A stretch of 64,000 nt of DNA from a virus (lineage: Duplodnaviria; Caudoviricetes), in the IMG/VR virus record IMGVR_UViG_2595698521_000001, positions 1-64,000 of that record; one strand, given 5' to 3'. A program made the position numbers and the translations under genes. Positions 602 to 63,549 of this stretch are shown here, one piece after another. The notes under the pieces were generated by a model. That model searched no databases and was not told the DNA's origin. It saw nothing but the letters and a program-made list of their open reading frames with translations. Each line of letters starts with the position of its first letter. Position 1 is the stretch's first letter.

Positions 602-1258
602 TTATTGTACTACTTGTTTATGATGGATGTCAAAGTACTCTGTTTTGACTAATTCCATAACCGAATCATAGTAATACTTCATTGCAATACTTGTTAAATC
701 TTCACCTGTGAAGTAGTTCTTATAAGTATCTTCTTTTCCTTTTTCGTTTGTGAATTTAAATCCGTCTTCATAGTTCTGTGAGTAAAGAAGTATACCGTCT
801 TCTCTTACGATTTGGAATTCTCTCTTATCATAGTTATATATAGAAGAAACTTTCTGCCCGTAAATTTGTCCTACTAAATCCGAAATATGATAGTGAAGTT
901 CTTTCATATGATAGTCCGCAACTGTAACAAGTTTTTTCGGGAATAAGTTTACCAACGTCATTCCATTTTCATAATGATTTCTTGTATGTGCATATCTTAG
1001 TTGTGGGTGATACATACCGAACTCCCACATAATATGATTTATGTATTGTGCATCCGTTCTACTATATCCACCGGAATTGTTTTGCACTACTTTAGAATGA
1101 ATATTTGCATCTAAGATTAATGTACCTTCTCTATATACAGTTAGGTTTCCGTCCAAAATTTCAATAGAAAAAACTACATAACCGTTTTTCTTTTTATAAG
1201 CTTCACCTTCAGCTTTAGCTTTTGCAATCATATTAGATAACCATTGTACTTTTTTCAT
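602..1258 (-). CDS. hypothetical early protein
   Basis: ORF track 602..1342; ATG at 1258 (MKKVQW) has a GGAGG RBS and lies downstream of the promoter at 1307-1335. Confidence 0.7.
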   Translation of the reverse strand: MKKVQWLSNMIAKAKAEGEAYKKKNGYVVFSIEILDGNLTVYREGTLILDANIHSKVVQNNSGGYSRTDAQYINHIMWEFGMYHPQLRYAHTRNHYENGMTLVNLFPKKLVTVADYHMKELHYHISDLVGQIYGQKVSSIYNYDKREFQIVREDGILLYSQNYEDGFKFTNEKGKEDTYKNYFTGEDLTSIAMKYYYDSVMELVKTEYFDIHHKQVVQ

Positions 1259-10326: not shown

Positions 10327-12600
10327 CTATTGTTCAGATACAACATCATTAGTTACATCTTTTCTGTCTTGTTTCTTTTCTTCTTCGTCAAGCGGATTTT
10401 TAGATTGAGTTTCTTGTGCGAAAAGTCTACTAAGAATTCCACCTTGCGGGTTAGTAACTGTAGTTGTAGTTTCTTCTGTGCCATCTGCGTGAATTACTCT
10501 CCTTTGCATTGCCGCAATTTGATTCTGCTGTTCATGTAATCGTCTAACGCTATCCATTAAGCGCATGTTTTGGTCAATCATAGCAGAAACAGTTGGGTCT
10601 GCCATTCCTCCGTCCATTGTCTCGAATAGTAACAGACGTTGCAAGCGTTCCATGTTCGCATCTGCCATTCCCATCATAGCATCTTGTAAATCATTAATAT
10701 CACGAGTCTTAAACTTCTTGAACTCTTTTTCAAATGCACATGCATAATCCGGTTTATACTCCGGACATTCTCCTGCCTTGTAGCAAGTGTTACATGCTAA
10801 TTTCGGGAAGAATTTAGAACCTAATGATTTCGGCTTTCTTACTTTCTTCTGTCCTTTTAAGAATCTTCCCTTTTCATCTCGTACAGCTACAATACCTTTC
10901 TGCGCTAATTCCGCATCCAATGCTTCTACTTCCGGCATTTCTCCCTCGACAGGTGCAGGAAGGTAATTAGCCATCTCTGCTTCACTTACGTCCACAACTT
11001 TGAAATGTTCCTCTTCCAAATAACTGTCACGCTCTTTTGGTCGTGGTGGGGCTTCATCCATAGCATCAGAATCATCAGAAACGTAGTCAGAACGTTCACC
11101 ACGAGCATTTTCTTCAAAATAGGTAGTAAGAGAGGTAATTGCGTCTTCTCGTTCGTTACAGTCAATTTTGAGAAGGAAATTAGCCATATCACAAAGCTGT
11201 TCATCCGTGTACTCTTCTAATTGGTCTGTATCCACTAAGAAAATGCGGTAGTTATAAAGAATATCCAGTACCTCTTCTTTAGGTAGGTCTAATGGAATTC
11301 CGAAATACTTCGCAACTACTTTGTAATTCTCTGCTTCTCCATCGTACCAATCAAGCGGAGGAAGATTAGTATGGACTTCTTCTAATGTCTTAACTGTCCC
11401 GTCCGGCTCATCTGATAGTGCCAAGAACTCTTCGAACTTAGTTTGTGGACGATTCTGCACTTGTTCATCTAATTGCTCCCATATACCTTTCTTAGCAGGT
11501 GCAGTTGTTTTTGGTTTAGGTGCTTCTTGTTTTGGTTCTTCAGCTACTTTCTTCTTAATTCCTAATTTCTTCTTCGGTTTCACCTTCAGCTTTTTCTTAG
11601 GTGTAGTTTCTTCAGCTTCAGTTACTTCCTTTTTTGCACTTGGACGTTTTAATATCTTCTTAGCCATAGTTCGTGTACTTTCTCCTTTCCCGCTATTTAT
11701 TCCTTTTAACCAATAACATCTTGCTTTAATTCGTTTAATGATGTATTTCTCTGCTTCACGGAATACTAATAAATTTATCCGGATTAATTCGTATGGATTT
11801 TCCTGTCCGGCTAAATCCCAGTTTGCGCCAAGCTTAATGTACTTCTGCTTGTATACGGTTTTCCATTTGTCTTTCTTTAGTCGCTTTAATCTACGTCCGT
11901 CAAACCAGTTCAATTCTCCATACTGCGTTCCGACAAGCCAAGTCGTGGAATCTCCCGTAAAGAAAGGAAGTTTTGACATGATTTCAACACGTGTCAAAGC
12001 GAATCCGTGAATGATACTGTTATATCTTCGAGCAGTATTAACCATCTTCATAATTTGCGCATCAGTAAGGGAAGAAGATGTCTGTAATGAGAATCCTACA
12101 TAGTCGTACTTTTGGCACATTGTTTCCCAGTATTTAATCCCATCGTATTCATGCCATACATAACATACTAAAATTCCCTCATCCTTTAGTGGTTCAAAAT
12201 ACTTTGCTCTTAGTTCATCCAGTTTATCGAAACCTATTATATTCCCGATATCCAACTCCACGCAGGAGAATACTAAATCTTTATTTTCCCGCACAAAGTT
12301 TGTATACCGTTCTAAATAGTTCTCCCAAAACTCCATAGGCTTATTTTTGTACTCTTCCTCTTTGATATGGAATGTATAAGCTCCGGAGTCAATCATTACC
12401 TTGATGTGTGGGTGCTTCTCCAAACGTTTTCGTAAGAAGTTCTTACCCTTCTGCTGTATGTAGTGATAGGAAACTAGCACTCTATCCACTCCGGATTTTA
12501 TTGCTATGTCCCAATATGCATCAGATTCCACACCAGACATTACAAGTCGAGTGGGACTGTTTACACTTTCTCCGTAGATTTCATATAACTTGTTACTCAT
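10327..12600 (-). CDS. DpdA/TGT-like deazaguanine DNA transglycosylase domain fused to a long C-terminal region
   Basis: IDSGAY, ELDI, IHGF and DSTTW motifs of the TGT-like barrel; directly downstream of folE in the que cluster; C-terminal CxxCxxxxxC...C cluster. Confidence 0.7.
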   Translation of the reverse strand: MSNKLYEIYGESVNSPTRLVMSGVESDAYWDIAIKSGVDRVLVSYHYIQQKGKNFLRKRLEKHPHIKVMIDSGAYTFHIKEEEYKNKPMEFWENYLERYTNFVRENKDLVFSCVELDIGNIIGFDKLDELRAKYFEPLKDEGILVCYVWHEYDGIKYWETMCQKYDYVGFSLQTSSSLTDAQIMKMVNTARRYNSIIHGFALTRVEIMSKLPFFTGDSTTWLVGTQYGELNWFDGRRLKRLKKDKWKTVYKQKYIKLGANWDLAGQENPYELIRINLLVFREAEKYIIKRIKARCYWLKGINSGKGESTRTMAKKILKRPSAKKEVTEAEETTPKKKLKVKPKKKLGIKKKVAEEPKQEAPKPKTTAPAKKGIWEQLDEQVQNRPQTKFEEFLALSDEPDGTVKTLEEVHTNLPPLDWYDGEAENYKVVAKYFGIPLDLPKEEVLDILYNYRIFLVDTDQLEEYTDEQLCDMANFLLKIDCNEREDAITSLTTYFEENARGERSDYVSDDSDAMDEAPPRPKERDSYLEEEHFKVVDVSEAEMANYLPAPVEGEMPEVEALDAELAQKGIVAVRDEKGRFLKGQKKVRKPKSLGSKFFPKLACNTCYKAGECPEYKPDYACAFEKEFKKFKTRDINDLQDAMMGMADANMERLQRLLLFETMDGGMADPTVSAMIDQNMRLMDSVRRLHEQQNQIAAMQRRVIHADGTEETTTTVTNPQGGILSRLFAQETQSKNPLDEEEKKQDRKDVTNDVVSEQ

Positions 12601-13154
12601 TTACGACCACCTCTTGCATAATATCTTTCAAACACATCCGGTCTGTAAATTCTGCGGGTAGTAGTTGTTGCTTCAGAACGTACACCTCTTGCACACATGC
12701 AAGTATGGATACAATCATATATTTCAACCTCTAATGCTTCCGGTTGTAGAATCTCAATTAAGAAATCGTAAATTTCCGTGGTCAAATCTTCCTGTACTTG
12801 TGGCTTCTTAGCAAACCATTCTGCAATACGTGCAAACTTCGATAGTCCGATAATTTTAGCACCAGGAATATACCGTATGTAAACTTTCCCGATAAAAGGT
12901 AAATGATGATGTGAACACATAGAACTAATTGTAATTCCGTCTTGTTCAACTAATGACGAACCAACACATTCAAATGTAGTACAAATTGGTGCTAATTCCT
13001 CATAAGGGTCTTTACCTTCATTCTCTGTCATTTCAATTAATGCTTTTGCTACTCGCAATGGAGTATCTGCATTATCCGCATTTCTTTCTATTCCTAGTTC
13101 CCGCATAATTCCGCTATAGTGTACTTCGATAGTTTCTCTGTTAACTTTTTTCAC
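12597..13154 (-). CDS. folE: GTP cyclohydrolase I
   Basis: DTPLRVAK, SMCSHHHLPF, GLSKFAR, PQVQE, HTCMCARG. Confidence 0.93.
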   Translation of the reverse strand: MKKVNRETIEVHYSGIMRELGIERNADNADTPLRVAKALIEMTENEGKDPYEELAPICTTFECVGSSLVEQDGITISSMCSHHHLPFIGKVYIRYIPGAKIIGLSKFARIAEWFAKKPQVQEDLTTEIYDFLIEILQPEALEVEIYDCIHTCMCARGVRSEATTTTRRIYRPDVFERYYARGGRK

Positions 13155-13218
13155 GTTAATTCCTCCTTAAAAAAAAATAAAAAAGACTGATACTAATATA
13201 GTACCAATCTTTTCATGA

Positions 13219-13437
13219 TTAGAACAGTGACATTTGATCACCGTCATTTCTTCGTTGTTTACGAGGAAGTTTACCTTTACTAGTTTTAGTAGTATTACGT
13301 GGTAAACGTCCTAAATTCATAGATTGCTGTCCTAAGTTTCTTGGAGCTGTACGAGGTAATCCGCCACCGGATGGTGTTTGGGTACGTGTACTGCCACCTC
13401 CACTTTTAGGCGTAGCGTATACGTTTAAGAATAACAT
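13219..13437 (-). CDS. small basic Gly/Arg-rich protein (paralog B)
   Basis: 72 aa; GGGAGGTG RBS; MLFLNVYA leader; LPR repeats. Confidence 0.75.
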   Translation of the reverse strand: MLFLNVYATPKSGGGSTRTQTPSGGGLPRTAPRNLGQQSMNLGRLPRNTTKTSKGKLPRKQRRNDGDQMSLF

Positions 13438-13454
13438 GATGTCTCACCTCCCCA

Positions 13455-13480
13455 AAAGAAAAAGCTCCCCGTAGGAAGCT
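13455..13480 (-). terminator. intrinsic terminator between the two basic mini-proteins
   Basis: AGCTTCC-TACG-GGGAGCT stem followed by TTTTCTTTT on the minus strand. Confidence 0.6.
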
Positions 13481-13486
13481 TCTTAC

Positions 13487-13696
13487 TTATCGTCCACCCA
13501 TACGACGTGGAGCTGTACGTGGTAATTTAGCACGGCTTGCACGAGCTTGACGAGCTTGTCGTCCTGCTGAAGCACTTCCACCGCCACCTAATGTTCGTGG
13601 TGCTGTACGTGGAAGACCACCACCCGCAGGTGTTTGCGCTCGTCCACCACCGCCACCCGCTCCTTTTGGTGTTGCGAATACGTTCATGAATAACAT
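13487..13696 (-). CDS. small basic Gly/Arg-rich protein (paralog A)
   Basis: 69 aa; AGGAGGTG RBS; MLFMNVFA leader; LPRTAPR twice; no acidic residues. Confidence 0.8.
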   Translation of the reverse strand: MLFMNVFATPKGAGGGGGRAQTPAGGGLPRTAPRTLGGGGSASAGRQARQARASRAKLPRTAPRRMGGR

Positions 13697-13784
13697 AGAG
13701 TTGCACCTCCTAAATTGGTATAACTACTTCAACGGTGAGTTGTGGGGCGTTACTCCCATGTAGTCTATGTTTAACGCTAACTAC

Positions 13785-13813
13785 ACTATACCTTATTTTG
13801 AGATGCGTAACAA
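13785..13813 (-). promoter_or_regulatory. SigA-like promoter for the mini-protein genes
   Basis: TTGTTA-N17-TATAGT, followed by a ~80-nt leader with two hairpins. Confidence 0.5.
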
Positions 13814-13818
13814 CTACT

Positions 13819-14508
13819 CTATGAAATTATTTCCTGCTCATATTTTCGAATAGACTCACAATCTCCACATTTTCCGCAAGGGAAACCGTCTGAATCCGGT
13901 AAATTACAAGAGATACTGTGTGCAAGAATTTCCGCTAAATCAAGACCTAAAACATTTACTGCATAATCTTTTACTTGGTCTTTACTATTTAGTGCGAATG
14001 GAGCAACTACTTGAATCTTTTGGTCTGTAATGCTAAATAACATAGAATCGAATGATTTTACGAATCGTGCATTACCATCTGCATAACATCCATCAATAAT
14101 AGCTGTGTAGATATCAATAGCACCTATACTCTCCGCAATACTTGATGCATAAGCTAAGAAGATTAGATTTCGCATTTCGATGTATTGGATACTCTCATCT
14201 GCTTTATCAATTTCTTCTCCGGCTACTTGGTTATCACGTAGCATTTTAGCTTTTGACCAAGAATTAATACTCGGTAATTCCAAAATTCCCATTTCAAGTT
14301 GATACTTTCTAGCCCAGTAGTGAGCGTTGTTCATTTCTTGAATTCGGTTCTTTTGTCCGTAATCGAAAAATAGTAGGAATGGTTTCTGTCCTCTATTCAT
14401 TACCTCATGTAATAGTACAATGCTATCGAATCCTCCACTAAATAAAACTACTGCATTATTTTCCACGATATTTTCCACCTTTCTTGTTATTGCGTTCTTC
14501 TGCTTCAC
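13819..14508 (-). CDS. queC: 7-cyano-7-deazaguanine (preQ0) synthase
   Basis: AVVLFSGGFDS PP-loop, FDYGQ, RNLIFL, SC...PCGKCGDC; start may be GTG at 14466. Confidence 0.9.
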   Translation of the reverse strand: MKQKNAITRKVENIVENNAVVLFSGGFDSIVLLHEVMNRGQKPFLLFFDYGQKNRIQEMNNAHYWARKYQLEMGILELPSINSWSKAKMLRDNQVAGEEIDKADESIQYIEMRNLIFLAYASSIAESIGAIDIYTAIIDGCYADGNARFVKSFDSMLFSITDQKIQVVAPFALNSKDQVKDYAVNVLGLDLAEILAHSISCNLPDSDGFPCGKCGDCESIRKYEQEIIS

Positions 14509-14641
14509 GTAACTTCTTGCTTAGTACTCGGTTTAAATGCTTATGACGTTTCTTTTCGTTTTGTTCTTTCTTTAATTGCTTCTTTAACCGGAAATTTTCG
14601 GCTTCAATAAGTTTCATGTATTCATATTGTGCGTCCGTCAT
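14456..14641 (-). CDS. small basic coiled-coil protein
   Basis: 61-aa ORF with GGGG RBS between queE and queC. Confidence 0.5.
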   Translation of the reverse strand: MTDAQYEYMKLIEAENFRLKKQLKKEQNEKKRHKHLNRVLSKKLREAEERNNKKGGKYRGK

Positions 14642-14654
14642 AATAATTCCCCCA

Positions 14655-15323
14655 TCAGTCGATATTCAAGAATTTGTGTGTTTGTAAACCTAAACGTACT
14701 TTTGGAATCTTGTCTTCCATAATCCATTGCGCAAGCTCTTCAGCTATTTTACTATTCTTACCTCGGAATAGCGGACTAAAGATAATGTTTGCACGGGTTG
14801 GATATTTGCGAATAACATCTTTAGCAAAAACATAATCTTCAATATTACCGATAACAAATTTAACTTCATCCCTTTCAGTTAGACGTGCTAAGTTTTCATA
14901 GATGTTTTGGTGTTCTGCTCCACTTGATAAACCTTTAACATCCATCGTATATGCAAAGGAACGGAACTCTCTTTCCTCTAATTCCACTCCACCGTTTGTT
15001 TCGATGTTAACTGTATGTCCTGCTTGCACTAATTCATAAATTAGCGGGTAAACATTTTCTTGAATCAAAGGTTCTCCACCTGTGATACAAACATGTTTAT
15101 TCTTCATTTTCTTTACTTCTTCAACTATTTTCTTTACTCCCATCGTTTTCCACTGTTTGCCGACAACTGCATACATAGAATCACAATAGGTGCAACGCAT
15201 ATTGCAACCGAATAAGCGGACAAAAGTAGTAGGATATCCAGTGTACTTTCCTTCCCCTTGTAGCGTAGTGAATATAGTGTTAACTTTTAATGTCATTGCG
15301 TTTCCTGCCATCATACATCCCAC
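14655..15323 (-). CDS. queE: 7-carboxy-7-deazaguanine synthase (radical SAM)
   Basis: FTTLQGEG, FVRLFGCNMRCTYCDS (CxxxCxxC), ITGGEP, IETNG, LQTHK. Confidence 0.93.
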   Translation of the reverse strand: MGCMMAGNAMTLKVNTIFTTLQGEGKYTGYPTTFVRLFGCNMRCTYCDSMYAVVGKQWKTMGVKKIVEEVKKMKNKHVCITGGEPLIQENVYPLIYELVQAGHTVNIETNGGVELEEREFRSFAYTMDVKGLSSGAEHQNIYENLARLTERDEVKFVIGNIEDYVFAKDVIRKYPTRANIIFSPLFRGKNSKIAEELAQWIMEDKIPKVRLGLQTHKFLNID

Positions 15324-15799
15324 TCTTTCCGGAATTCTGCGTAACTTGTAGGTGTTTCGAATAGTCGTACAAACTCTACTCGTGCATCTAATGTATCCGC
15401 AAATTCCTTATTAATTTCTTCTTCCATCTTTTTATAAATCCAATAGACCATGTTCTCTGCTGTCGTATTCATTGGCGGTAATGTTTCGTTTAGGTAACGA
15501 TGGTCTAAATGTACCTCTATTTCGTCTTTCCAAATGCGCTTAATTTCCCCGAAATCAATAGCTAAACCACGGAAATCTGTAAAGCTACTAATTCCAAACA
15601 CGACTTTATATGTATGTCCGTGAAGGTTCTTACATTTACCTTCGTACATGTGTAGATGATGTGCGGAATCAAAAGTAAATTCCTTAGATACTAATACTCG
15701 TTTCTTATGATACTTTAATTGGTCTGCTTTAATATCTGTTCCAAACTTCTGCAATTCGTCTACGATTCTAAAACCATACTCGTTGCTTAATTTGCTCAT
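15311..15799 (-). CDS. queD: 6-carboxytetrahydropterin synthase
   Basis: FDSAHHL, CKNLHGHTY, LDHRYLN, TTAEN, FETPTS. Confidence 0.93.
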   Translation of the reverse strand: MSKLSNEYGFRIVDELQKFGTDIKADQLKYHKKRVLVSKEFTFDSAHHLHMYEGKCKNLHGHTYKVVFGISSFTDFRGLAIDFGEIKRIWKDEIEVHLDHRYLNETLPPMNTTAENMVYWIYKKMEEEINKEFADTLDARVEFVRLFETPTSYAEFRKEWDV

Positions 15800-16067
15800 C
15801 CGTAACTTCCTCCTTATTTTCTACTTTTGGCTCTACGTATTGTAATCCTTCAACTTGTCGGCAAATTTCTTTCAACTGCCACGGATTAAATCGTAAGAGT
15901 TTAGATACTACATCATCTATATTACCATTAAATCTGTGTTCTTCACGCATTTCTTTCCATCTCATGGTATAAAAATCTGCGGAAACATAGTAAGGAGGGT
16001 CGCCATCCGGCTCTCTCCCCACAAAATTTATGTACGATTCTCTTGTTAGTTGTACCCGCTTTGGCAT
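15768..16067 (-). CDS. hypothetical protein
   Basis: 99-aa ORF with GAGGTGATC RBS. Confidence 0.6.
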   Translation of the reverse strand: MPKRVQLTRESYINFVGREPDGDPPYYVSADFYTMRWKEMREEHRFNGNIDDVVSKLLRFNPWQLKEICRQVEGLQYVEPKVENKEEVTDEQIKQRVWF

Positions 16068-16077
16068 TTGATCACCT

Positions 16078-16422
16078 CTAATTGATTGCGAATATAGAGC
16101 GATATCCTGTCACTACATAGAATCCGTCTTGCCACACTTTCCCTGTGTCTACTTTTTCATCTGTGACAACATTAGTAATCCCATATCCTCTTTTTAGTTT
16201 TAAATCTTCCTGACCGAAAATATGCTCATATTGGAACTCGTCACGTAAAAATTTAGCGTGGTGTTTATTCCAAATTACAACCGCATATCCTTTTTCCTTT
16301 GCATACTCTATTAGTGCAGTTGTCTTCCCTGTTTGACGTTGTGATTCTCCATATACAGGTACTAATTGTTTAACTTCTTCAGCGTGTGCCAACATTTGTT
16401 TCCATGCTCCTGTTAAATTCAT
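16078..16422 (-). CDS. small P-loop-like protein
   Basis: RQTGKTT Walker A-like and VVTDE Walker B-like motifs in only 114 aa. Confidence 0.6.
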   Translation of the reverse strand: MNLTGAWKQMLAHAEEVKQLVPVYGESQRQTGKTTALIEYAKEKGYAVVIWNKHHAKFLRDEFQYEHIFGQEDLKLKRGYGITNVVTDEKVDTGKVWQDGFYVVTGYRSIFAIN

Positions 16423-16480
16423 CGTTAATTCCTCCGTTAATTTTATTTTAGATACAGAAAAAGCGAGGAATAATCCCCGC

Positions 16481-16753
16481 TTAGTTTAAGCTAACTATCG
16501 CTTTAAGCGTAGTCTTATCATCACCATCAATTGTTACGTTTCCGAAACCAGGTCGAACAACTAGGTCACGTCCCTTTGTAGCAATATTGCCACGAGCTTT
16601 AGCTAATGCTTTATAAGCTTGGTTTAATGCTCCCGCACCAATTACAGTGATTTCTAAATCGTGTCCGTCTTCTAATGCTTTTGTAATACTTCCGGATAGG
16701 GTTTTTACATTAGCAGTAGATTTTACCTTCATTTGCTTCAGTTCTTTACTCAT
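16481..16753 (-). CDS. spoVS: stage V sporulation protein S homolog
   Basis: KV...IGAGALNQAYKALAKARG...PGF...IDG SpoVS signature. Confidence 0.88.
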   Translation of the reverse strand: MSKELKQMKVKSTANVKTLSGSITKALEDGHDLEITVIGAGALNQAYKALAKARGNIATKGRDLVVRPGFGNVTIDGDDKTTLKAIVSLN

Positions 16754-17196
16754 GTGCGTTTCCTCCCAACTGTATTAAAGAATGCTTCTTTAAATGGAAC
16801 GACTCTACCTAGTACATTCTCGGCTACGAGGAATCCATATTCCCTACTATCAAGACTATTATCCTTGTTATCTCCCTCAAACCACAAATATGTATCGTGG
16901 TGAGTATCAGCACAAGAAATTAATCGCTTAATGTTAGGTCTACCAACTGTGGGTGGTAAAACTACGAATATCTCATCAACAAACTCGGAAGCTATTAGTA
17001 TCTCCCTAAAGTTAAATTTTCGGTCAAGAATCATGAATCTACCGTGTTTAAGGGTAGGCATCATGCTTTCTCCGTTAACTCTAACGATTGTATAGCGCAT
17101 GAAAAATGCGACTAGGAACAGTAGTACTACTATGAGTATAACCATGCTTACTATGAATGGCAACATTTTCTTTCCCTCCAATTCTACTTTTACCAA
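16750..17196 (-). CDS. S26 signal peptidase-like protease (short SodX/IMP type) with N-terminal TM
   Basis: GESMMPTL (catalytic Ser), IKRL (Lys), GDN...SLDSREYG; TM helix near the N-terminus. Confidence 0.85.
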   Translation of the reverse strand: MVKVELEGKKMLPFIVSMVILIVVLLFLVAFFMRYTIVRVNGESMMPTLKHGRFMILDRKFNFREILIASEFVDEIFVVLPPTVGRPNIKRLISCADTHHDTYLWFEGDNKDNSLDSREYGFLVAENVLGRVVPFKEAFFNTVGRKRT

Positions 17197-17199
17197 CTA

Positions 17200-17577
17200 T
17201 TAATTAATAACTTCATCAACTGCATCCATTAAAACTTTCTCTTCTTTCACTTCTTGGAATCTATTAACCATCATTCCCTCATGGTAAACAGTTCCGAAGA
17301 AATCACGGAAAGGTCTGTGGTGAGGATAACCGTCTATGTCAAGGTAAGTAACAATCATTGTTTCATCTAAATGAGTATCATTAGAAGACTTGAACATTCC
17401 TATTCCTTCTACCTTGTAGTATGTTCCTCTACTGTAGTGCTTAAAGTACCTTCCTGCGAAGTCGTGGGACATTTTTCTTGTCCACTCTAGTTTTTCCTTG
17501 TACGTCCAATTTTCCCACCCGCTTCTTGACGGTTGAATTTCCATTTCGTGCAGTTTGTTTTTTTCGTTGATTTCCAC
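17200..17577 (-). CDS. DUF1653-like protein
   Basis: GRYFKHY..GTYYKV...VTY...HRPFRDFF. Confidence 0.65.
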   Translation of the reverse strand: MEINEKNKLHEMEIQPSRSGWENWTYKEKLEWTRKMSHDFAGRYFKHYSRGTYYKVEGIGMFKSSNDTHLDETMIVTYLDIDGYPHHRPFRDFFGTVYHEGMMVNRFQEVKEEKVLMDAVDEVIN

Positions 17578-18142
17578 GTTTAGTTGCTCCCTTCGGTCTT
17601 ACGACACGTTTTTTATCTACTAAAGAAAGAAAGTCTTCAAGCTTCAGCATTACAAAGTCTTCAGCTTCCTGTACTCTCTTACCTTCCTTTGCTTTTTGTC
17701 TACGATGAAATGCTATGATAGGGTAGGAATTTTCCGGACAGTCGGAAATAGCTTGCTCCCACCATTCGTTTAACTTCCATACTCCATGATTCTTACATTC
17801 AATATGTAACCCGAAATCAATATCTTCATCAAGGCAAGAAAGATCACCACGAAGTAATGAGTTATCGGACGACTTCTGAAATCCACCGGAAGCAGGGGTG
17901 CGTACTAAACGCAATCCCCACTTTCTTAGGAATTTCTTAGCTACATCATTCTCGTATGTAGCTCCTTTTCGCTTACTGGCTTTTCCTTGCTTACTTAGTC
18001 GAATCTTATCTTCTAATTCCGCAACTTTCTCTGCCAATTCAGCTTTTGTCCATCCATTCAATTTCATTACTTGTTTAGGTGCTAATTGCAACATCTGCAA
18101 TTGAGTTTGGTAATGTTCGAGATTACTTACTTTTCCCGCCAT
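17441..18142 (-). CDS. Holliday junction resolvase-like PD-(D/E)XK nuclease
   Basis: SKRKGATYE, RTPASGG, GDL, IECKN. Confidence 0.75.
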   Translation of the reverse strand: MAGKVSNLEHYQTQLQMLQLAPKQVMKLNGWTKAELAEKVAELEDKIRLSKQGKASKRKGATYENDVAKKFLRKWGLRLVRTPASGGFQKSSDNSLLRGDLSCLDEDIDFGLHIECKNHGVWKLNEWWEQAISDCPENSYPIIAFHRRQKAKEGKRVQEAEDFVMLKLEDFLSLVDKKRVVRPKGATKRGNQRKKQTARNGNSTVKKRVGKLDVQGKTRVDKKNVPRLRRKVL

Positions 18143-44687: not shown

Positions 44688-45401
44688 CTATTTAGTGAAA
44701 GCAGAGATAAAAGTATCGCTGTAGCCTTTTGCTTTAAGTTCTGCAACTAAAGCTTCAGCATTGCTTTTATCTTTGTAAGATGCAACTACTACACGGTAGA
44801 ATACTTCACCTTCTCCACCGCCAGTTGTTGGTGGTTGTACAACTTGCTTACGTGTTAAGCCCATTGCGTCTGCGATACCTTCAGCATATGCATGAGACAT
44901 TTCACGAACGAATGCTTCATTTTTAAGCAAGTTAGAATCAGCAGTATCAATGAATGCCATCTCAGTTAAAACAGCGTCCATTGCAGTTTCACGTAAAACG
45001 TGTAAGTCCTGCTTCTTCATACCACGGTCACGTAATCCGTATTTGTTCAATACTGGAACTACTTTCGCATGGATTTTCTTTTGTTTCTGTGCGCCTGTTG
45101 AAGCGTCAGAAAGTCCGCTATAGATAAAGTCTTCATATCCTGTTCCACCACCGGAGTTGATGTGAGCAGAGAAGAAGAAGTCCACTCCTAAACGGTTAGC
45201 TTGGTTTGTTCGGTCTGATAATGTAGGGAACACGTCACTAGTACGAGTCATCGTAATTTCAATACCGTCAAAGTTAGCTAGTAAGTAGTCACGAACTTGG
45301 AATCCGATGTTTAATGTTAATACTTTTTCAAGTAAACCATTTCCTACTGCACCGGAATCTGTTCCACCATGACCTGGATCAATTAGCAATTTTTTAACCA
45401 T
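44688..45401 (-). CDS. N-acetylmuramoyl-L-alanine amidase endolysin (Amidase_3 + SPOR)
   Basis: IDPGHGG, EK, SAHINS, VLRET, LTE; C-terminal YRVVVASY...NAEAL SPOR. Confidence 0.92.
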   Translation of the reverse strand: MVKKLLIDPGHGGTDSGAVGNGLLEKVLTLNIGFQVRDYLLANFDGIEITMTRTSDVFPTLSDRTNQANRLGVDFFFSAHINSGGGTGYEDFIYSGLSDASTGAQKQKKIHAKVVPVLNKYGLRDRGMKKQDLHVLRETAMDAVLTEMAFIDTADSNLLKNEAFVREMSHAYAEGIADAMGLTRKQVVQPPTTGGGEGEVFYRVVVASYKDKSNAEALVAELKAKGYSDTFISAFTK

Positions 45402-45503
45402 TATAATTCCTCCCTCTTTTGTATTCCCTATTATGATACTGGAAAACATTGCAGATTTCTACACTCTTGACAAAATAAAAGGACACGCAAGGTGTCCAAT
45501 TCA

Positions 45504-45811: not shown

Positions 45812-48800
45812 TTAATTGCTCCCTTCTAATTTAGCTAATCTTTCTAGTACTTCAGCTAATGTATTCTTTAATTCCGCATTTTCTGTTTCAAGTGCGTCAA
45901 TTCTTTCTTCTTGCGCTTCAGTTTTTTCGATGTTGTGTTTTGTACCGGAAGCAACAAGGGAAGCGAATGAGTAGATATCTACCGATGGGTTCGTATCAAA
46001 TGTTTCTCCATCCTTATCTAATACGAAGAATGGTAGTTCATCTGCCATCGTTCCTAACTTCATTTCGTTCTCGCTGTTTTCTCGGTCTGTGTAGTGGTAA
46101 GTGTAAATGCTTAGGTCTTTCAGAGCATTATAACCCATTTCATCATCGTACACTTGGATATCGCCCTTAATCTTTCTATCAGACGCTTGAATCCATCCCG
46201 CAGAAGTGTATCCTTTGTAGAACTTGAAGTCATTCGTCCCTACAAATCCATAACCCGAACGTGGATAAGGCATAATTGTAGGCTCTTTACCTTCAGTTCC
46301 CACACCATTACTGTTAAATGTAATGTAGTTATCATACACAACGTTATTAATCATGAAGTCTAAAGAGTTACCTTGCATACGATGCGTAGTGTTCTCTTTC
46401 TCACGACCAATCCATACTTGACCTTCCATCGAAATTTTCCCGAAATCATTTCCGTAGTTGATAACAAGACCGGGACCATATGTTGTTCCTACCATAGCAC
46501 GTTTACCGCCTAAAGTAGTTAAGTCATACGTTCCTCTTACTTCCCATGAACCCCAGTGAGATTTAAGAGTTACAGGGTCGCCCGCATAAGATAAGATTCC
46601 GTCATCTCGTAATTGCAGGTATTTTCCGGATTTAGTATTGGTAATGTAAGCATCACTTGCTCCTACTCCCATTAACATACTCTTATCGGTAGTTCCACCT
46701 CTAATGTAGTTACCCCAAACTGTTCCGTTGTCTTGGAATTGTATAGAGTTACCTACATCCCAATCTTGTGCGTTTACAGATTTCGAAGGGACTAATGAAA
46801 TTGCTTGCGTAGAAGGGTCATTCCATAATGTCCATGACTTCTTATTCTGTACTTTAGAAATTAACGGATAAGCATGATTAACTGTAAGACTTCCCGTGAA
46901 AGTATCACCTTTTACGAATGCATAAACGCTATCGTGGTTGTGATTTGCTTCTGCTTTAGATGTTTTCAATCCTTCAGCAGTATCAAATACTCGCTTCAAT
47001 GCGTTTGCAGTTGGTGCTTGTGTTACCGATGTACTATTTGAAGCATCCGTTAACTGTACAATACCCGGATTTCCTGTTGCCGCAGTCGGTAAGTTCTGCC
47101 ATGTATTATCATTTCGTAAGAAGCGATATCCGTTTGCAGTCTCCGTATTCGGAACATGGTTTCCGTGAGAAGCTTTCGCATAAACTGTATCATGATTGTG
47201 GTCACTTCTTGCTACTTGTGTAGCACTACCATTTCCTCCGAAGTTTACGGATAGAGTTGTATCTGTTCCGATGTTACTTCCACCTAATAATCCTGCTCCG
47301 GAATTAATTTTTACATTGTATCCGGCATATTTAGCAGAAAGGTTTGTTCCTCCCTCACTAATATTACCTGGTACAAGTAAGTTACCCGAACGGTTAAATA
47401 CCATTTCTTTTCTATCTTCCCATGCAGTATTAACATTTGCTAAGAAATAGATATCAGCATCCGCAGTTACAAACATATTTTCAGCAGAGGTAGCTACGTT
47501 AGGAGCAACAGTAGCAAGCGCACCTTCACCTGCTCCGATGATTACTGGACCGCCACCTTCGATTACTAATTTCATTCCGTATTGGTCTGCATCAGAAGCT
47601 TGTATTACTTTACGTTTATACCATTTAGTTGCTCCTGTAGCATCTTGATACGATTTGTTAATAGATATTCCCGCATCCTGCATAGTTAGGTCGCCCGTCA
47701 TTGTGTCTCCTGCACGAGTAACTTGTTTTGCTAATTCAGTAGCAAGGATTTCATCATCCGTAAGTCTCTTCCATGCGCTCCATGAAGTTCTATTCCAAGC
47801 AGAGCGTACAAATACTTGAGCACCTGTATGTGAAGTGTAGCGTTGGAATAAGTGTCTATCTTCACTAGTATTTCTGTATACTTCTAATGTACCGTAAGGG
47901 TAACAGTTAGGTGGTGTAGAAGCGTGTCGAGTACCTGTAGCATCAGAAACGTTATAGTTACCTGTAGTAATAATTGCGTTCCAATCACTTTGTACAGTAG
48001 TACTTGCAGTTTGTTCTCGGACTATATTCCACCCCGCATGAATTACATCCCACGTATTGTCGATTTTTACAGGACCATTAATATTAACTCCGTTTTTAAA
48101 ATCTTTACCGTAGTTAAGGTGGAGTTTGTCTTCCCCAGTAGTTGGCATACCTACTACTGCTCGTTTGTCCCAAACTAGTAAATCTTGCCCTCCGTTTGTT
48201 CTCCACTGTCCCCAATCTTTATGAATGCTTGGTTTATCTGCATGGTCTTTAAAAGTCTTCGTGTCTACTACTTCATCAAGGAAAGCTAGTTTTCTTTTCG
48301 CATTCCATGTTGCACCATCAAATGCTCCTTGTTGTAAATATACTCCCTCTTGTGACTTATCAAGTAAGAGCATGTTTATTTTCCCGCCCGATTGGTCTTG
48401 GTAAGTAGAGAATACCATTGCATCTGCATACGGACTATTTGCTACGTTGTTTAATCCCGTAAATAGGAATTGTACTTCTTTATACTTAGTAGGAGCGGTA
48501 GCACCAAACTGGGTAGGAGTAGTAGTTCTTACATCTCCCGCTTGTACACTATAGATTGTGTTACCACTTGCAGTATAAGCAGTATCATGATTATGGTTTA
48601 ATGATGCTTTGTTGTTTAGTGCTGATTGTAGTCCAGTGATATTGTCGATAGTATGCGCATGACTATTATCAGCAATTTCTACTGTACCGTCTGTTTGGAT
48701 AACTAAATCTCTTCCGCTCTTAATACCACCCAATACTGAAGCAGTAGCAATTGGAAGTGAGTAGTTACTTAATCCGGCAAGTTTATTCTTTTCAGCAGTT

Positions 48801-63000: not shown

Positions 63001-63549
63001 TTATTTTTCAACTGTTCCTGCTACTCCACCAGTGTTAGAACCTTTTAGTAACTTGATTCCTTCATGCTGTACTACCATCTTCTCAACTGCTACGTTGTTA
63101 GATTTAGCATCGAAGTCCCCAGTTTCATAGTCAGAAATCCAAGCTTCACGCATTTCCCATGCTTTAACACCTTGTCGTCCACGGTCTAAAAGCTCAATTT
63201 TCACTGTGCATTTATGTCCGTCATCATTTGGTGCTTTAGTAACTTGTTGATAAATCCAATCGAACATGTCGCCATCTTCTGACATCCCACGTTCGAATGT
63301 GATAGGGTCATTTTTCAATAGACCCGGTAATTTATGAGGTGATAACTGTCTGTCGCCACCTTCACGGTATTCGATTACGTCAGTTTTTAACTTTAATCCC
63401 GTAATCTTTTGGAATCCTGCTTTCGCAAAGATTTTCTTACCCGTAATAGTAACTAAGAAGTTAAAGTTACGGTAAGGGTCGTGGCGGTCAGTTGAAGCAA
63501 AAGATTGACCGCTATCTGCGTGTACGTTCATGAATAGTTTTTTCAACAT
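63001..63549 (-). CDS. major tail tube protein (T4 gp19/Afp1-like)
   Basis: DPYRNFNF, GFQKITGL, EYREGG, KLPG, ITFERG, FDAKSNNVAVE. Confidence 0.9.
   Translation of the reverse strand: MLKKLFMNVHADSGQSFASTDRHDPYRNFNFLVTITGKKIFAKAGFQKITGLKLKTDVIEYREGGDRQLSPHKLPGLLKNDPITFERGMSEDGDMFDWIYQQVTKAPNDDGHKCTVKIELLDRGRQGVKAWEMREAWISDYETGDFDAKSNNVAVEKMVVQHEGIKLLKGSNTGGVAGTVEK

Follow-up and report, generated by a model that had tools for sequence, protein, structure and literature searches.

A candidate virion leader peptidase of the S26 family in a tailed phage whose head, tail tube and small basic proteins share an N-terminal (V/A)-x-A tag

Virion maturation in tailed phages is, to our knowledge, attributed to prohead proteases that resemble the herpesvirus assemblin, to ClpP-like proteases or, rarely, to the host protease Prp. 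In phage T4, the scaffold, capsid protein and small internal proteins have a short N-terminal tag in common, which the prohead protease gp21 removes by a cut after Glu. The leader of nickel superoxide dismutase ends in a small-x-Ala motif. Here we analyse a DNA stretch of 64,000 nucleotides (the window), corresponding to the first 64 kb of the IMG/VR record IMGVR_UViG_2595698521_000001 (93,839 bp, rated complete by CheckV and called G000 below), which encodes a short peptidase of the S26 family together with proteins sharing a short N-terminal leader that ends in V-x-A. The closest known system is the processing by Prp of the head proteins of Staphylococcus phage 80alpha; among enzymes, signal peptidase I and SodX come nearest. 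The L27/Prp motif is (D/N)LQ(F/L)F'A, where the apostrophe marks the cut and L27 keeps Phe or Leu before it (PMC9405229), and SodX is described as the peptidase that matures nickel superoxide dismutase (PMC3919588, PMC8346466).

We give a probability of about 60% to the reading that the phage S26 protein is a leader peptidase standing in for a prohead protease. Compared with T4 gp21, both the protease family and the motif are different here, and the tag is also found on a tail protein. The likeness to 80alpha and Prp (MEROPS C108; PMC9405229) lies in the lack of a prohead protease, in the short N-terminal tag shared by unrelated head proteins and in the recourse to a non-prohead protease, here a predicted one. 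The differences are that the motif is (V/A)-x-A and not (D/N)LQ(F/L)F'A, that the candidate enzyme is a phage Ser-Lys peptidase of the S26 family and not a host Cys-His enzyme (PMC9405229), and that the tag extends to the tail tube and to small basic proteins.

By scanning all open reading frames (ORFs) of the genome, we found the leader (L/M)F(M/L/Q)(N/T)V(F/Y/H)A on five G000 proteins:

13219..13437, minus strand: basic mini-protein 2 (72 amino acids; phrog_32714, E-value 1e-43)
13487..13696, minus strand: basic mini-protein 1 (69 amino acids, net charge +13; phrog_32714, E-value 2e-37)
63001..63549, minus strand: major tail tube protein (182 amino acids; PF06841, E-value 1.4e-33)
G000 68092-69165, just past the end of the window: major capsid protein (phrog_1357, E-value 5e-73)
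G000 69192-69989, just past the end of the window and upstream of the capsid gene: coiled-coil scaffold, encoded between the portal and capsid genes

The leader of mini-protein 1 is MLFMNVFA (13673-13696), followed by TPKGAGGGGGR..., while that of mini-protein 2, its tandem paralogue (51-56% identical), is MLFLNVYA (13414-13437), followed by TPK. The tube begins with MLKKLFMNVHA (63517-63549) and continues with DSGQSFAST.... These three leaders had been reported in the original prediction and were recovered as minus-strand ORFs exactly where it had placed them; the capsid and the scaffold are two further carriers, absent from it, that the genome-wide motif search brought in. Their N-termini read ...FLNVLFQNVFA/DASQ and ...LEGMFMTVHA/EEPTTPP, respectively, the slash marking here and below the predicted cut. 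On the capsid, the match to phrog_1357 begins at residue 24, which is the first residue past that cut. Strong Shine-Dalgarno sites lie 6-9 nucleotides before the ATG of the tube and of both mini-proteins (AGGAGGTG, GGGGAGGTGA and GGGGAGGG), so the leaders of these three proteins are translated. Public gene calls start at the inner Met, both in the identical tube P0001 (176 amino acids, MNVHA...) and in the homologue P0031 (MNVFA...); automatic annotation clips and so hides these leaders.

Leaders were scored with a position matrix trained solely on tube leaders from other phages. About 0.6 N-terminal segments with a score of at least 7.8 are expected by chance among 168 ORFs, and five ORFs other than the tube were observed: the capsid (15.7), mini-protein 1 (10.9), mini-protein 2 (9.4), the ORF 602-1258 (9.0) and the scaffold (7.8). 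By this measure the leader motif is in excess of chance in G000. The ORF 602-1258 (minus strand, 218 amino acids) begins with MKKVQWLSNMIAKAKA/EGE, has no PHROG match and may be either a further substrate or a chance match. A second tube protein and the hub protein, put forward previously as weaker substrates, both read F-R-A; with F at -3 and a matrix score under the threshold, they were not retained.

The candidate enzyme is encoded about 3 kb from the mini-proteins:

16750..17166, minus strand: short S26 (signal peptidase I-like) Ser-Lys peptidase (138 amino acids; PF10502, E-value 7e-14)

The gene had been delimited as 16750..17196. It is real, its start being probably 17166: the ATG at this position has GGAGGG 7 nucleotides upstream, the TTG at 17196 is without a Shine-Dalgarno site, and the ATG is the more likely start on these signals, so that the protein would have 138 amino acids and not 148. 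It scores 52.5 bits on PF10502 (cut-off 22.9) and 53.5 bits on TIGR02227 (cut-off 47), and the S26 of two relatives reach 69.7 and 80.2 bits on the latter profile. The layout comprises an N-terminal transmembrane helix, GESMMPT (with Ser34), IKR (with Lys80) and GDNKDNSLDSREYG. Ser34, K80-R81, G98-D99-N100, S104 and D106-S107-R108..G are invariant in all 13 phage S26 copies, which are 25-33% identical to the window copy and 112-140 amino acids long. The large inserted beta domain is missing, the profile matches being split into positions 5-77 and 132-164 of 168. Profiles and invariance bear out the earlier description of intact Ser/Lys motifs with no large inserted domain. That description did not mention the N-terminal membrane anchor, whereas all 13 copies have one hydrophobic helix at the extreme N-terminus. 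The tail preceding this helix has 0-7 residues in 11 of the 13, and the flanking charge counts are small and mixed, giving an ambiguous positive-inside topology.

An AlphaFold2 model of the protein (predicted local distance difference test score, pLDDT, of 78.6) contains a helix at residues 2-24 and a beta core. Its best PDB matches with Foldseek were SEC11, SpsB, SipA and the LexA C-domain, all at probability 1.00 but with weak E-values of 5e-3 to 5e-2. As modelled, the phage S26 has the S26/S24 beta-barrel fold. The nearest ESM Atlas clusters are made of short S26 proteins, mostly viral. With LepB, SipS and SpsB (S26A) the phage protein has in common the motifs SMxPT, KR and GDNxxxSxDSR, the N-terminal anchor and, as proposed here, the small-x-Ala rule. 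It is unlike type I signal peptidases in its short length without the inserted domain, and also in that its proposed substrates are cytoplasmic virion proteins bearing tags of 5-30 residues, which are not exported. The short S26 core is also a feature of SodX (PMC3919588, PMC8346466), as would be the trimming, here proposed, of short leaders on proteins that are not secreted. The alignment to the SodX profile TIGR02754 is end to end (positions 1-90 of 90), with scores of 37.3, 52.6 and 56.5 bits for a cut-off of 63.25. With scores below the cut-off, the peptidase called SodX-like in the original prediction is not a member of the SodX family. The phage enzymes differ from SodX, moreover, by their membrane anchor and their many proposed substrates. 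The sodN profile (PF09055) had no match in G000, the control genomes giving no match either.

We then considered the tube leaders of other phages. Out of 87 tube homologues retrieved, P0002-P0078 (n=77) were counted, and P0001 and P0079-P0087 were omitted. An N-terminal extension ending in Ala, located 8-18 residues before a conserved (H/Y)DP motif, is present in 73 of the 77. Position -3 is occupied by V in 46 leaders and by A in 23 (69/73); as the choice of the cut site favoured V or A at -3, the unbiased check comes from the alignments, where columns V9 and A11 show a conservation of 90% or more and the remainder of the tag varies. Position -2 varies widely (L, F, Y, H, M, K, N, E, Q and others) and +1 is never Pro. 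This pattern fits the -3/-1 rule of S26 enzymes. Most of the distant PF06841 tubes are without an N-terminal extension. The G014 tube reads ...QVHA/MARTS where leaderless tubes start with MARTI..., and it looks as if it had kept the ancestral start after the Ala.

The capsid N-termini were compared at 66 IMG/VR loci. They were classed into four kinds by manual reading, the automatic classing having misplaced several sites:

Kind A (53 of 66 loci): basic start, short hydrophobic stretch, then (V/A)-x-A
Kind B (5 loci, L198-L202): start at the mature end, MANxINTVV; scaffolds tagless too
Kind C (3 loci, L238, L239 and L241): L27/Prp-like tag FNFNLQTF'A
Kind D (5 loci, L244-L248): tagless

Leaderless capsids start with MANxINTVV where tagged ones read ...A/DSQINTV, and from these alignments the tag is an add-on set exactly before the predicted mature N-terminus. 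Certain kind-A tags resemble almost complete signal peptides, with the full basic-hydrophobic-AxA layout. Leader types have apparently been exchanged within one capsid family (G039, L238, L239). The capsids of the Bacteroides phage BS162P1 (L166 8998-9996, OP172706.1) and of a faecal phage contig (L324 3929-4927, MT835482.1) are 40-42% identical to the G000 capsid, and their N-termini look like a full signal peptide or a membrane anchor.

In the relatives that were read as a whole, the scaffold and the capsid carry the tag, the tube does so in most cases, and it is also found on one or two small proteins that are very basic, rich in Gly, Ser and Arg, and encoded 3-5 kb from the S26 gene. For instance, G001:C10, a phage contig from a Thermosipho metagenome-assembled genome (MAG), has MFIKVFA/E on the mini-protein, LIKSVFA/E on the scaffold, FFLNVYA/E on the capsid and LLMNVYA/E on the tube. 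G014, G021, G026, G029 and G035 each have their own tag variant on the same set of proteins, and some mini-protein tags comprise no more than MKVFA or MKAYA. Because the variants differ from phage to phage and the G026 tube is tagless, the tag is a dispensable, portable add-on of which only -3 and -1 are fixed.

The S26 gene was sought in the 43 IMG/VR records in which the capsid locus is on a contig of at least 16 kb (the other 23 loci, on shorter contigs, were omitted). It is present in 14 of these records; among the 10 with a completeness of 90% or more, 9 have it. The sole relative of such completeness without S26 is G039, whose capsid and tube are leaderless. Among the 16 records with a SpoVS gene, S26 is found in all 14 with a leader-type capsid and in neither of the 2 of kind D, which agrees with the co-occurrence that the original prediction had proposed to look for. 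The Streptomyces phage BRock has neither tags nor S26. The two genes adjacent to S26 are the following:

16481..16753, minus strand: SpoVS-like gene, overlapping the S26 stop codon (PF04232, E-value 4e-20)
17441..18142, minus strand: PDDEXK_15/resolvase-like endonuclease, not a protease, conserved upstream neighbour of S26 (PF24608, E-value 4e-27; phrog_244)

The genes for the PDDEXK nuclease, S26 and SpoVS form a trio whose synteny holds in G000, eight IMG/VR records, the phage contig of the Thermosipho MAG and a contig from a Bacillota MAG; in the bin of the latter, the tube and capsid genes sit on a contig other than that of the trio. SpoVS was considered as a partner of the peptidase and discarded, since it is present also where S26 is absent (it is found in 10 of 10 near-complete relatives, G039 included, and in G038 and BRock, these last three being without S26). 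Among the G000 ORFs of at least 60 amino acids, three occur in all 8 genomes of the S26 clade and are missing from both G039 and BRock: QueC, the PDDEXK nuclease and S26.

Known maturation proteases were also searched for. None of the 12 records of a panel matched S78 (PF04586), ClpP/S14 (PF00574) or S77 (PF03420), the S77 control matching nowhere and S49 lying outside the search, and Prp had no match in G000 or in 5 further records, 4 of which also belong to the panel. The gene between portal and capsid encodes the coiled-coil scaffold, without a protease domain. The L27/Prp motif is matched by the L238/L239 capsid and by the scaffold of G039 (a complete 105-kb relative, the record behind L247), which at 46857-47684 reads ...PLNLQLF'AEE, exactly the L27/Prp type. 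Taken together, the earlier proposal of a phage-encoded S26 with a portable V-x-A virion tag, distinct from Prp processing, is upheld in that the tag is conserved, S26 travels along with it and a relative without S26 uses the Prp motif; its cleavage step keeps the status of a prediction.

The mechanism that we propose is as follows. A membrane-held miniature S26 would remove the (V/A)-x-A tag from the scaffold, the capsid, the tube and one or two basic mini-proteins. The end of the tag would be bound as an extended strand, with the small side chains at -1 and -3 lodged in pockets of the enzyme, and the cut after Ala would yield mature proteins starting with D, E, T, S or A. For this, the S26 catalytic domain would have to reach cytoplasmic substrates. 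The tag may prevent early assembly of the scaffold, capsid and tube, or may bring these subunits to the membrane. The basic mini-proteins would probably be DNA-associated virion proteins. One may go further and imagine, although we find it doubtful, that an inverted or cytoplasm-accessible mini signal peptidase has become a general pre-protein peptidase. The scaffold, capsid, tube and DNA-binding mini-proteins would all be pre-proteins with signal-peptide-derived tags, and would be processed on the inner side of the membrane. Through a single enzyme, the assembly of head and tail would then be both linked to the membrane and timed.

Several observations weigh against S26 as the leader peptidase. 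That the tag is cut after Ala, and that S26 is the enzyme that cuts it, are both steps that we infer from the sequences. Canonical S26 enzymes face outward and virion proteins are cytoplasmic; as signal peptidases are normally outward-facing and the charges around the anchor are ambiguous, the access of S26 to its substrates is an assumption. The leaderless genomes without S26 form 2-3 lineages outside the S26 clade, with a capsid identity of 46-47% as against 53-70% inside it, and since they are outgroups, shared ancestry alone could yield the co-occurrence, QueC and the nuclease sharing the same profile. The leaderless clade that is nested within the tagged ones (L198-L202) consists of fragments without the tube, SpoVS or PDDEXK genes. 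The G026 tube is leaderless although this phage has S26, a stop codon immediately upstream accounting for the missing tag. G035 has S26 and yet a Prp-like capsid leader, FNFNLQTFA/G; T-F-A is, however, also an acceptable S26 site, and the scaffold and tube of this phage carry V-x-A tags. The public S26 gene call of a near-identical sibling (P0088, 94 amino acids) starts at Met45 and so is without Ser34. Finally, the BS162P1 and MT835482.1 capsids have a hydrophobic N-terminus of about 20 residues ending in A-G-A or A-I-A, and no S26 gene accompanies them.

This last observation would also suit the explanation that the leaders are removed by an unrecognised phage protease or by a host protease other than Prp, S26 acting outward on an exported protein. 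The classical N-terminal anchor of S26 and its position among early DNA-metabolism genes beside SpoVS, far from the structural genes, point in the same direction, as does the number of phage ORFs without known function. We nevertheless hold it to be unlikely: no other gene bearing a protease signature is distributed among the genomes as S26 is, the conserved positions of the tag are exactly those needed at an S26 site, and no exported phage substrate turned up, although the search for one was not systematic. It is also conceivable that the tags are retained, as a structural or assembly element or as the translation-start context shared by abundant late proteins. The tag codons of G000 do resemble one another, the tube model (mean pLDDT 65, below 50 for residues 1-24) gives the tag no confident structure either way, and cleavage is, as said, a prediction. 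But tags of the size of MKVFA or MKAYA are too short for structural modules, functional homologues do without them (the G026 tube, the capsid and scaffold of L198-L202, G039 and BRock) and, save at -3 and -1, they vary freely between phages, which makes retention quite improbable in our view.

Host Prp, the Cys protease that trims the ribosomal protein L27, could instead cut on the N-terminal side of the Ala, directly behind the aromatic residue, in the manner known from 80alpha, S26 being otherwise employed. The phage indeed has no prohead protease and its scaffold and capsid share an N-terminal tag like those of 80alpha (PMC9405229), the residue preceding Ala is always F, Y or H in G000 and G001:C10, and both MAGs with related phage contigs have genes for Prp and for a long L27. 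Moreover, this phage group can use Prp, because G039 and G035/L239 have true Prp-type motifs. These genuine motifs are exact copies, unlike the V-x-A tags: the L27 motif [LIM]Q.[FL]A is matched by 0 of the 77 tube leaders and (D/N)LQ(F/L)F'A by 0 of the 5 G000 leaders. The would-be P1 residue is often L, K, N, E or Q, whereas L27 keeps Phe or Leu (PMC9405229). In both MAGs the L27 N-termini read ..DIQLF'AK and are dissimilar to the tags of the resident phages, least like ..REALA/S and ..RTARA/D. Processing of the V-x-A tags by Prp therefore seems to us highly unlikely, and S26 remains the enzyme that we favour.

If S26 is indeed the leader peptidase, it would represent a new protease family in virion maturation, the second S26 enzyme, after SodX, to act on non-secreted proteins, and the first case of one tag marking head, tail and small basic proteins. 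A literature search, which did not extend to full texts or supplements, found no published description of an S26 peptidase in phage virion maturation. The system is small, one enzyme of 138 amino acids and tags of 5-11 residues, and the tag-peptidase pair could serve as a tool.

Megablast of the window positions 13000-18000 against GenBank phages gave no match, nor did tblastn of S26 and of a mini-protein against the same phages. In a word-index protein search, S26 retrieved the near-identical sibling and one 28% match, and a viral-contig scan gave one weak locus; the mini-protein had no match in either. Profile searches of whole records recovered the divergent S26 copies, at 25-33% identity. 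Among the matches listed by a metagenome scan, distant tubes were found at 40% identity or less.

The mini-proteins lie within a 7-deazaguanine gene set (10327-15799) in which Pfam matches identify GTP cyclohydrolase I (12597-13154), QueC (13819-14508), a radical-SAM QueE-like protein (14655-15323) and a PTPS/QueD-like protein (15311-15799); a 757-amino-acid ORF at 10327-12600 has no Pfam match. Two weak signals from a consensus scan flank the mini-protein pair:

13785..13813, minus strand: promoter-like site upstream of the pair (1 found for 1.4 expected)
13180-13214: terminator-like hairpin

Elsewhere in the window, the gene at 44688-45449 combines an Amidase_3 and a SPOR domain and, judging from these domains, encodes a probable endolysin.

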